Of a stretch of 44,071 nucleotides of DNA, positions 43,640 through 44,020 are shown in pieces. The notes under the pieces are model-generated. The model ran no database searches and was not told the DNA's origin. It worked only from the letters and a program-made list of their open reading frames with translations. The position numbers and the translations under genes were made by a program. Position 1 is the first letter of the stretch, and every line of letters begins with the position of its first letter. The stretch comes from Escherichia phage vB_EcoS-UDS3lw, in the sequence record PQ658967.1. One strand, 5' to 3'.

Positions 43640-43696
43640 GAATAGTTATGCAATAAAACTGCATAAACCAAACGGGACAAAAAGCGGGACAAACAG

Positions 43697-43950
43697 GGGG
43701 CGGGACAAAGCGGGACAGCACCCCCGTCCCGCCCCGGATGGCGCGGCTTCCAGGGGTGCGGGACAGCGGGACAGCACCCCAGTCTTTCAGACTAGACGGG
43801 GGTCAACGGCCCCCCTCGTCTGAGGGGCGGGACAAAGCGGGACAGCACCCCCGTCCCGCCCCGGATGGCGCGGCTTCCAGGGGTGCGGGACAGCGGGACA
43901 GCACCCCAGTCTTTCAGACTAGACGGGGGTCAACGGCCCCCCTCGTCTGA
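43697..43950 (+). repeat. two perfect tandem copies of a 127-bp GC-rich element (GCGGGACA iterons, 10-bp inverted repeat, terminal hairpin)
   Basis: 43697-43823 and 43824-43950 identical by eye; preceded by iteron leader 43669-43696; third copy at 16132-16258. Confidence 0.9.
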
Positions 43951-44020
43951 GACTGAATAAAATCCGGGGATTGCAAATTACACGGCAGCAGGACGCGAGG
44001 AGCGGTCGTCGATGAACTAG

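Follow-up and report, generated by a model that had tools for sequence, protein, structure and literature searches.

The P4 alpha protein combines three functions in one polypeptide: it is a primase, a helicase (described as superfamily 3, SF3) and, through a C-terminal winged-helix domain, an origin binder. Its target is an 8-bp iteron, which two separate loci carry in both direct and inverted form. One of these loci, crr, consists of two direct repeats of ~120 bp that are naturally duplicated. In RSF1010, an IncQ plasmid, the iteron binder, the helicase (RepA) and the primase are three proteins (RepA, RepB′ and RepC), and the iterons are 20 bp long. Here, we discuss a locus in Escherichia phage vB_EcoS-UDS3lw (PQ658967.1), designated region B, in which an array of 8-bp iterons lies downstream of the gene for a primase-helicase. 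The whole stretch of DNA that was analysed (44,071 bp, GC content 54.671%; hereafter the window) is a complete-looking Dhillonvirus genome, from an SO-1/HK578-like E. coli siphovirus, and as deposited it contains a perfect tandem pair of a 127-bp unit within region B.

We propose that two layers have to be separated at this locus. The tandem doubling is a putative assembly artefact, which we hold with high confidence. The single-copy element may well be a phage replication origin, or at least an initiator-loading site, although by analogy with described systems we put this at about an even chance. Its iterons are probably read by the C-terminal domain of the primase-helicase (a putative assignment), and in the combination of artefact and origin module we have middling confidence. 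The element is of a known kind, i.e. an iteron-type, initiator-adjacent array, and its status as a repeat region is already given in the record of Sodalis phage SO-1. To our knowledge, region B has been neither characterized nor linked to the winged-helix tail of the primase-helicase before, and searchable literature yielded no mapped origin for Dhillonvirus and related siphoviruses.

The single-copy element of region B

The module spans positions 43630-43957, ~330 bp as deposited and 201 bp once one 127-bp unit is subtracted. After collapsing the doubling, it consists of an AT-rich leader, four direct iterons, an inverted iteron, a GC-rich spacer of ~22 bp, two abutting iterons and a hairpin of ~50 nt, in this order. 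The leader (43630-43671, + strand; ~77% A+T by our own count versus 45% for the genome) carries an GAATAGTTATGCA box, which is kept even where the primase-helicase is only 37-45% identical, and a TTATGCA/TGCATAA inverted pair. The array begins 161 bp past the primase-helicase stop codon. Its four direct iterons, (A/G)CGGGACA (43672-43717, + strand), start at 43672, 43684, 43700 and 43710, giving spacings of 12, 16 and 10. They are followed by an inverted iteron, GTCCCGCCCC, on the − strand (43726-43735, and 43853-43862 in copy 2 of the unit), and by two abutting direct iterons, GCGGGACAGCGGGACA, on the + strand (43758-43773, and again at 43885-43900 in copy 2). Each true unit therefore holds six direct GCGGGACA words and one inverted word. 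Over the whole window, GCGGGACA occurs 20 times against 2.08 expected, a count reached in no shuffle. Literature searches for GCGGGACA returned primers and unrelated matches only.

All sequence details of the original prediction, which was made from the sequence alone, were recovered. The leader iterons (ACGGGACAAAAAGCGGGACAAACA) were found at 43672-43695, the further direct repeats (GCGGGACAGCGGGACAG) are present together with abutting GCGGGACAG repeats, and a repeat search returned the 10-nt inverted repeat GGGGCGGGAC/GTCCCGCCCC with its 19-nt spacer (DNA fold z = -3.72 versus shuffles). The compound hairpin is complete at 43906-43957 (+ strand; CAGTCT..AGACT, then AGACGGGGG-loop-CCCCCCTCGTCT and GAGACTG) and folds better as DNA than shuffled sequences (z = -3.97; none of 200 shuffles as good). 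It had been described as lacking a U-tract; no terminator-like sites were scored in 43400-44071, and the hairpin is followed by GAGACTGAATAAAAT, an A-rich tract. A consensus promoter scan of region B scored nothing either.

The entire intergenic region is strongly conserved within the genus. The part with the repeat matches 158 GenBank phage records at 80-97% identity, nearly all of them Escherichia/Shigella Dhillonvirus. Within the array, the CGGGAC cores are invariant at 34/42 positions, compared to 27/58 elsewhere (p = 8e-4). The 3′ arm of the inverted repeat (GTCCCGCCCC) changes among relatives without compensation in the 5′ arm (GGGGCGGGAC), and one related locus (L016) and a paralogous module of the window (region A, see below) have, in place of the spaced inverted repeat, an abutting palindrome in which the word is intact. 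Since arm changes go uncompensated and the palindromes preserve the word, it is the word that is selected and not the pairing, which is the signature of a DNA-binding site. As far as can be judged from these patterns, the repeats thus behave as protein-binding iterons, as their earlier naming implied. The terminal hairpin evolves differently: within the genus, its stems are invariant across 34 copies, with a hypervariable loop (>10 loop sequences).

The 127-bp doubling as a putative assembly artefact

In the deposited sequence, the unit occupies 43697-43823 (copy 1) and 43824-43950 (copy 2), both on the + strand and 100% identical. Tandem Repeats Finder (TRF) reports a period of 127, 2.0 copies and 100% matches over 43697-43951, and a repeat search independently equates the two intervals. 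The repeated bases number 127 + 1, where the extra right-hand base is due to chance. The left boundary is sharp (G at 43696 versus A at 43823), and no flanking microhomology of more than 1 bp was found at the edges of the tandem pair. Copy 1 has lost the 3′ closing arm of the hairpin, as the junction puts GAGGGGC in the place of GAGACTG. The perfect identity of the copies, as originally predicted, is thus confirmed; their biological status is not, because they most likely represent an untrimmed assembler overlap.

The relatives carry a single unit, in all ~160 GenBank relatives as well as in 14 relatives from IMG/VR. The GenBank matches listed cover 194 bp of a 321-bp query (321 - 127 = 194), 14/14 IMG/VR Dhillonvirus loci align with a 127-bp gap, and a query centred on the junction between the copies gave two-piece matches in inverted order only (161 records). 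The junction word was not found in the JGI metagenome collection, and its one match in IMG/VR is a chance match in a coding region of an unrelated high-GC phage contig. Conservation among relatives, which had been suggested as a check of the element, therefore holds for the single-copy element, whereas the doubled state was seen in no relative examined.

For reads of at least 250 nt, the default k series of SPAdes ends at 127, and the output of PhageTerm is a contig rotated to the predicted terminus. Artificial end-overlaps of exactly 127 bp have been documented for SPAdes contigs (PMC5923482). For vB_EcoS-UDS3lw, SPAdes 3.15.3 produced one contig from 2x250-nt reads, and this contig was subsequently analysed with PhageTerm; the paper explicitly mentions neither trimming nor rotation (PMC13348001). 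The repeat length equals this final k. A circular SPAdes contig would keep its usual 127-bp end overlap, and rotation of the untrimmed contig to a PhageTerm/PTXU06-type start would place the two overlap copies head to tail, resulting in an internal perfect tandem repeat. The first base of the window is the first base of PTXU06, which fits rotation to a pac terminus. Because the length is the SPAdes k, the copies are identical, the relatives are single-copy and the published assembly route would, with rotation of an untrimmed contig, yield such a repeat, we favour the artefact. If one copy is indeed an untrimmed k=127 overlap, the true genome most likely measures 43,944 bp.

This explanation has its own difficulties. 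A SPAdes overlap matches the repeat in its exact length, perfect identity, assembler and read length, tandem placement and absence from relatives, but such overlaps normally sit at the two ends of a contig, whereas this one is internal, 121 bp from the end. It also weighs against the artefact that, if SPAdes cuts the circle at random, the cut would have had to fall inside an element of ~200 bp, a coincidence of ~0.3%. A natural duplication of exactly 127 bp that is found in none of ~175 relatives is, however, much less likely than that. The doubling could otherwise be real, the origin core having been duplicated in tandem very recently in this isolate, where the extra iterons could alter titration of the initiator. 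Iteron regions are prone to recombination, the duplicated segment lies entirely within the repeat-rich element, and the module has been copied before, as region A. Moreover, a real 54-bp tandem duplication polymorphism (43501-43599, comprising an ATTGGTTGCC box and the 22-bp palindrome CGATATGGGAATTCCCATATCG) lies 150 bp upstream in the same intergenic region; this genuine natural duplication is present in the window and in 5/14 IMG/VR relatives, and not in the other nine. Against such an event stand a length of exactly the maximum k of SPAdes, 100% identity, the lack of microhomology beyond 1 bp and the absence of the doubled form from both relatives and metagenomes. It would furthermore require that the 127-bp overlap expected from the pipeline had been trimmed, and the tandem pair is the only repeat of at least 60 bp in a scan of the whole window. 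We consider a genuine duplication quite improbable.

The doubling also accounts for two program-predicted open reading frames (ORFs) across the unit, 43578-43823 (81 aa) and 43738-43950 (70 aa), which are its by-products. A coding role for them is rejected, as they need the doubling and as 1-nt indels separate relatives in this region; the unit is non-coding, in line with the original prediction. Several GenBank relatives have a 'hypothetical protein' annotated over region B, probably over-annotated non-coding DNA.

The primase-helicase and its proposed iteron-reading domain

The primase-helicase gene (41247-43511, + strand) encodes a 754-aa protein with an AAA_25 domain, for which an AlphaFold model was built from 39 homologues (predicted local distance difference test, pLDDT, 76). 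Pfam returned no family for its N-terminal 340 aa or its C-terminal 110 aa. In the N-terminal alpha/beta domain, D87 and D89 are invariant and H120 is near-invariant, from which we infer a primase motif of the archaeo-eukaryotic primase (AEP) type. The protein further contains a Cys/His cluster (C246, H252, C271, H273 and C279) and a RecA-like core, whose best solved structural match is the hexameric helicase RepA of RSF1010 (E 8e-11, template modelling (TM) score 0.65-0.69). As this core dominated structure searches with the full-length protein, the C-terminal domain was modelled separately. These ~100 aa (43209-43508, + strand) model as a winged helix, which is the proposed reader of the iterons. 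The protein ends in an acidic tail (residues 750-754, 43494-43508; DDDLKD) with an invariant D and L, which reads D-E-D-L in relatives and resembles the polymerase- and SSB-interaction tails of T7 gp4 and single-stranded DNA-binding (SSB) proteins.

In its predicted architecture, the protein resembles P4 alpha, with initiator, primase and helicase in one chain. The likeness is functional and architectural only: the two are not homologous, the helicase core in the window is of the RepA/RecA type, the iteron word differs, and a PDB sequence search with the primase-helicase gave no match to P4 alpha. With RSF1010, the computed likeness lies in the helicase core; functions that are separate there seem to be fused here, and the iterons are 8 bp instead of 20 bp.

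Homologues of the primase-helicase (37-70% identity) were gathered from IMG/VR, ENA/Logan contigs and GenBank, the GenBank ones being those of Pantoea phage AH01 and Hafnia phage TS33, both Guernseyvirinae; loci from this comparison are given with L numbers. After the gene, these distant homologues show the same order of elements: the GAATAGTTATGCA box, 3-4 direct words, one or more inverted words, a spacer, two close direct words and a long hairpin, then an ACACGGCARC box and a strong sigma-70 promoter. The word itself differs between lineages, at least six or seven words being seen: TTCCGACA in L023, CGGACAA in AH01, AGGGATAA in L025 and TS33, GGGGATRA in L028 and GTGTGGCA in L057, with GCGGGACA kept in L056. 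The hairpin stems are entirely different in each lineage, yet still pair (z = -2.1 to -3.2).

Word switching is accompanied by changes in one part of the primase-helicase. L023 and AH01, which have different words, are 96% identical over the primase and helicase parts and 51% over the last ~110 residues, and for AH01 and L025 these values are 87% and 39%. For the window and L016, which share a word, the same comparison gives 83% and 81%. Compared as DNA, L023 and AH01 share ~90% identity up to codon ~660; this drops to ~50% over the C-terminal domain and the iterons, and returns to 98% at the downstream promoter. Other DNA-binding proteins do not follow this pattern. The upstream HTH_23/sigma-70 region-4-like protein (40907-41236; 109 aa), which contains a helix-turn-helix (HTH), is 98.6% identical between L023 and AH01 despite their different words, and the HTH half of the Dhillon-type protein is near-identical in the window, L056 and L057, although the word of L057 differs; it is rejected as the iteron reader for this lack of co-variation. 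For the small terminase subunit TerS, the first 140 residues are ~94% identical in AH01 and the L023 contig (own alignment count). Because the HTH protein and TerS are near-constant where the word switches, the C-terminal domain of the primase-helicase is left, as judged by sequence comparison, as the one local candidate for DNA binding that varies with the word. The pattern is reminiscent of the lambdoid O/ori system, in which the DNA-binding domain and the adjacent iterons diverge as a swappable cassette while the rest of the protein is conserved. In lambda, however, the O gene itself contains the iterons, and its product is neither helicase nor primase, whereas the array discussed here is intergenic and 3′ of the gene.

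Three observations caution against assigning the iterons to this domain. Its coding region adjoins the iterons, and one recombination patch would exchange the two together even if they had no functional link; the word GCGGGACA persists in L056, whose C-terminal domain shares only ~57% identity with that of the window; and Jersey-type relatives have a homologous C-terminal domain without an iteron array after the gene. At these Jersey-type Salmonella phage loci (L019-L022, L024 and L026), the primase-helicase is followed by terminators and reverse-strand genes, and the only clusters found near the gene were ordinary terminator hairpins.

A paralogous module in the tail operon

A second module, region A (16100-16270, + strand), lies 27 kb from region B, between the tail-assembly-chaperone genes and the tape-measure gene. 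Its iterons (16107-16209) have the same spacing as those of region B, and its hairpin (16214-16262) is identical to that of region B. Upstream are two 78-bp repeats (15962-16115, + strand), each with an inverted iteron pair and a further inverted word. The first contains the perfect palindrome GCGGGACGTCCCGC, the second a variant that is imperfect by one base, GCGGGACGTCCCGT. The surrounding interval from the chaperone ORF to the tape-measure gene (15644-16331, ~690 bp) is occupied in its first half by a second chaperone-like ORF, a homologue of SO-1 gp16, and in its second half by non-coding region A. An extended -10 sequence, TGATACAAT, is located at ~16288, directly before the tape-measure gene.

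As AH01 and TS33 have one iteron cluster only, with abutting chaperone and tape-measure genes, region B is ancestral and region A a Dhillonvirus-specific copy. In Dhillonvirus, octamer iterons at two distant loci parallel the ori/crr arrangement of P4, while AH01 and TS33 have a single locus; unlike the duplication in crr, which is natural, the one in the window probably is not. Sodalis phage SO-1 (NC_013600) has orthologous repeat_regions at 40178-40657 (region B) and 11214-11597 (region A), with a note in the record on 'direct, inverted and palindromic repeat sequences' and on the mutual similarity of the two regions. In SO-1, the unit is single-copy. Literature searches found no paper describing or testing these SO-1 regions. 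Neither the paralogue at ~16100-16270 nor the SO-1 annotation formed part of the original prediction.

A replication origin or another function?

An iteron-type origin beside the replication initiator, as first proposed from the position of the repeats, is the best-supported function, given the conserved iteron cores, the co-variation of the word with the C-terminal winged helix and the AT-rich stretch beside the array. At least three short words cluster in non-coding DNA and are conserved among relatives, the array adjoins the primase-helicase gene in synteny across genera, and the A+T-rich stretch (43630-43671) directly flanks the iterons. The winged helix is predicted and co-varies with the word, with the adjacency of domain and iterons as a confounder. 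By analogy with P4 alpha/ori/crr and RSF1010 oriV, the primase-helicase could act as a self-contained, alpha-like initiator-helicase-primase: its winged-helix domains would bind the iterons, its RepA-type hexameric helicase would be loaded next to them, on the AT-rich leader, the extruded hairpin or both, and its N-terminal domain would prime synthesis, with region A as a second cis site like crr. The layout of oriV likewise brings together iterons, a GC-rich segment, AT-rich DNA and conserved hairpins of the single-strand initiation (ssi) type, and the hairpin of region B might have such an ssi role by analogy. Several findings fit this function poorly. The GC-skew minimum (~40-41 kb) follows gene orientation and does not point to region B, an origin would not be expected to have a look-alike within the tail operon, no DnaA boxes were recognized by eye, a perfect consensus for integration host factor (IHF) is confined to two other lineages (L025 and TS33), and the probable physical terminus 121 bp away fits a role in packaging.

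This last point bears on the alternative that the array is a pac recognition site, in which TerS would bind the GCGGGACA repeats and the first headful cut would be made ~120 bp downstream. The ends of PTXU06 were placed where most reads stopped abruptly (PMC6563267), and UDS3lw was classified by PhageTerm as 'headful with a preferred pac site' (PMC13348001). From the common PTXU06 start and this literature, the junction of the window end and start (44062-44071; ..TTTGCAGTTG followed by CAGCAGATAGCG..), which lies 121 bp beyond the repeat, is probably the pac terminus. The cut itself, between positions 44071 and 1, falls between TGCAGTTTGCAGTTG and CAGCAG in a highly conserved block; its distance of 4.4 kb from the downstream terS is unusual. 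The TerS of the window (4472-5122, followed by terL at 5122-6507) is P22 gp3/Sf6-like. Short-repeat arrays at most a few hundred bp from the first headful cut are known from SPP1 (pacL/pacR) and P1 (hexamer arrays), but there TerS reads sites in its own gene or beside it, whereas the terS of the window is 4.4 kb away and shows no co-variation, its N-terminal DNA-binding part hardly changing between AH01 and L023 though the iterons differ. A packaging role would moreover turn region A into a second pac amid the tail operon, the module is syntenic across genera with the primase-helicase and not with terS, and other Dhillonvirus reports describe plain headful packaging or permuted ends, or else a 'cos' of another sequence (that of EE09, ATCTTAAGGG, does not occur in the window). 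The packaging alternative of the original prediction thus gains weight from the terminus and loses it through the distant and near-constant terS, and we regard it as unlikely, though a serious rival to the origin. Similarly unlikely is a transcription boundary, at which the hairpin would end or stabilize the upstream mRNA and the iterons would serve as operator or activator sites for the following promoter (of the next operon in region B, of the tape-measure gene in region A). Each module comes after a block of + strand genes, at its 3′ end, and precedes promoter-like sequences, namely TTGCAT-N17-TATATT at 45-73 and, before the tape-measure gene, TGATACAAT. Distant relatives have a strong TTGACA-N17-TATTGT promoter within ~70 bp, those in the Guernseyvirinae with a U-rich run after the hairpin, and the CS16 record has a 'terminator' annotated at region B. 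However, region B itself gave no scored consensus terminator or promoter, the Dhillonvirus hairpin precedes an A-rich tract, the dedicated HTH regulators nearby do not co-vary with the iterons, and the switching of words with the primase-helicase C-terminus would go unexplained. A boundary role for the hairpin may be compatible with an origin. The least probable of these functions is a structured small RNA or cis-acting RNA element, e.g. a put-like antiterminator in two copies. Two same-strand copies per genome, a strong predicted fold (-82 kcal/mol, z = -3.8) and a conserved hairpin with lineage-specific stems are what such an element might show. Rfam 15, however, gave no match for the region at E<=1 or for the whole window at gathering score, and no promoter was scored upstream. 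The first 'stem' keeps the word and not its pairing, with arm changes uncompensated and, in L016 and region A, an abutting word-keeping palindrome in place of the spaced inverted repeat, and the iterons occur in both orientations at variable spacing, a signature of DNA sites. The small-RNA alternative raised earlier is therefore not supported.

Other repeats in the window

Around region B are three direct ACGCGCATTGGTTGCC-type boxes (43517-43621, + strand), with an inverted copy at 44020-44035 and two more at 40-48 and 72-79; small genes of no assigned function begin at 102. These boxes are part of a motif family, ATTGGTTGC, that is spread over the genome and is distinct from the iteron system. 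With 15 occurrences, ATTGGTTGC far exceeds the 0.46 expected, and there are 21 copies of TTGGTTGC. Sites of the family are found at 40-48, 72-79, 605, 3104/3127, 10362/10376, 26468, 29363/29374, 31030/31047, 33998, 37809/37825, 40710, 43523/43577/43612 and 44021. The copies are mostly paired, often between larger ORFs, and are inverted around the start and end of the window, where they overlap the -35 and -10 of the promoter-like TTGCAT-N17-TATATT sequence. Related words form arrays in other lineages, GCAACCAAC (8 copies) in L027 and TGTTGGCTG (4 copies) in TS33. The motif might act as a promoter element of the phage or as an operator to which a conserved regulator binds.

Three further tandem repeats lie within genes, probably as repeats within protein-coding sequence: 27028-27148 (42 bp x2.9, 92%) in an ORF at 26493-28109 (+ strand), 37062-37187 (54 bp x2.3, 72%) in an ORF at 36970-37773 (− strand) and 40223-40390 (87 bp x2.0, 82%) in an ORF at 39997-40686 (− strand).

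Implications

The deposited genome probably holds a 127-bp artefact that gives rise to two spurious ORFs and could mislead analyses of repeats, origins or termini. It makes a clean case of how an untrimmed SPAdes overlap can become an internal 'perfect tandem repeat' after rotation.

For phage biology, the locus provides a candidate origin and a candidate initiator that can be put to the test in Dhillonvirus and related siphoviruses. These phages are in wide use as therapy or biocontrol candidates against E. coli, Shigella and Salmonella and include members of the BASEL collection. The natural swaps (AH01 versus L023, and L056 versus L057) single out ~100 residues and 8-bp words. Tentatively, we suggest that Dhillonvirus and non-Jersey Guernseyvirinae may share an all-in-one initiator not characterized before, in which an acidic tail and a winged-helix origin reader are combined with a primase and a helicase of the RepA type, and that winged helix and iterons may be exchanged as one specificity module. 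Dhillonviruses would have gained a crr-like second site within the tail operon, and an origin ~120 bp from the pac cut might physically couple the initiation of replication to that of packaging.

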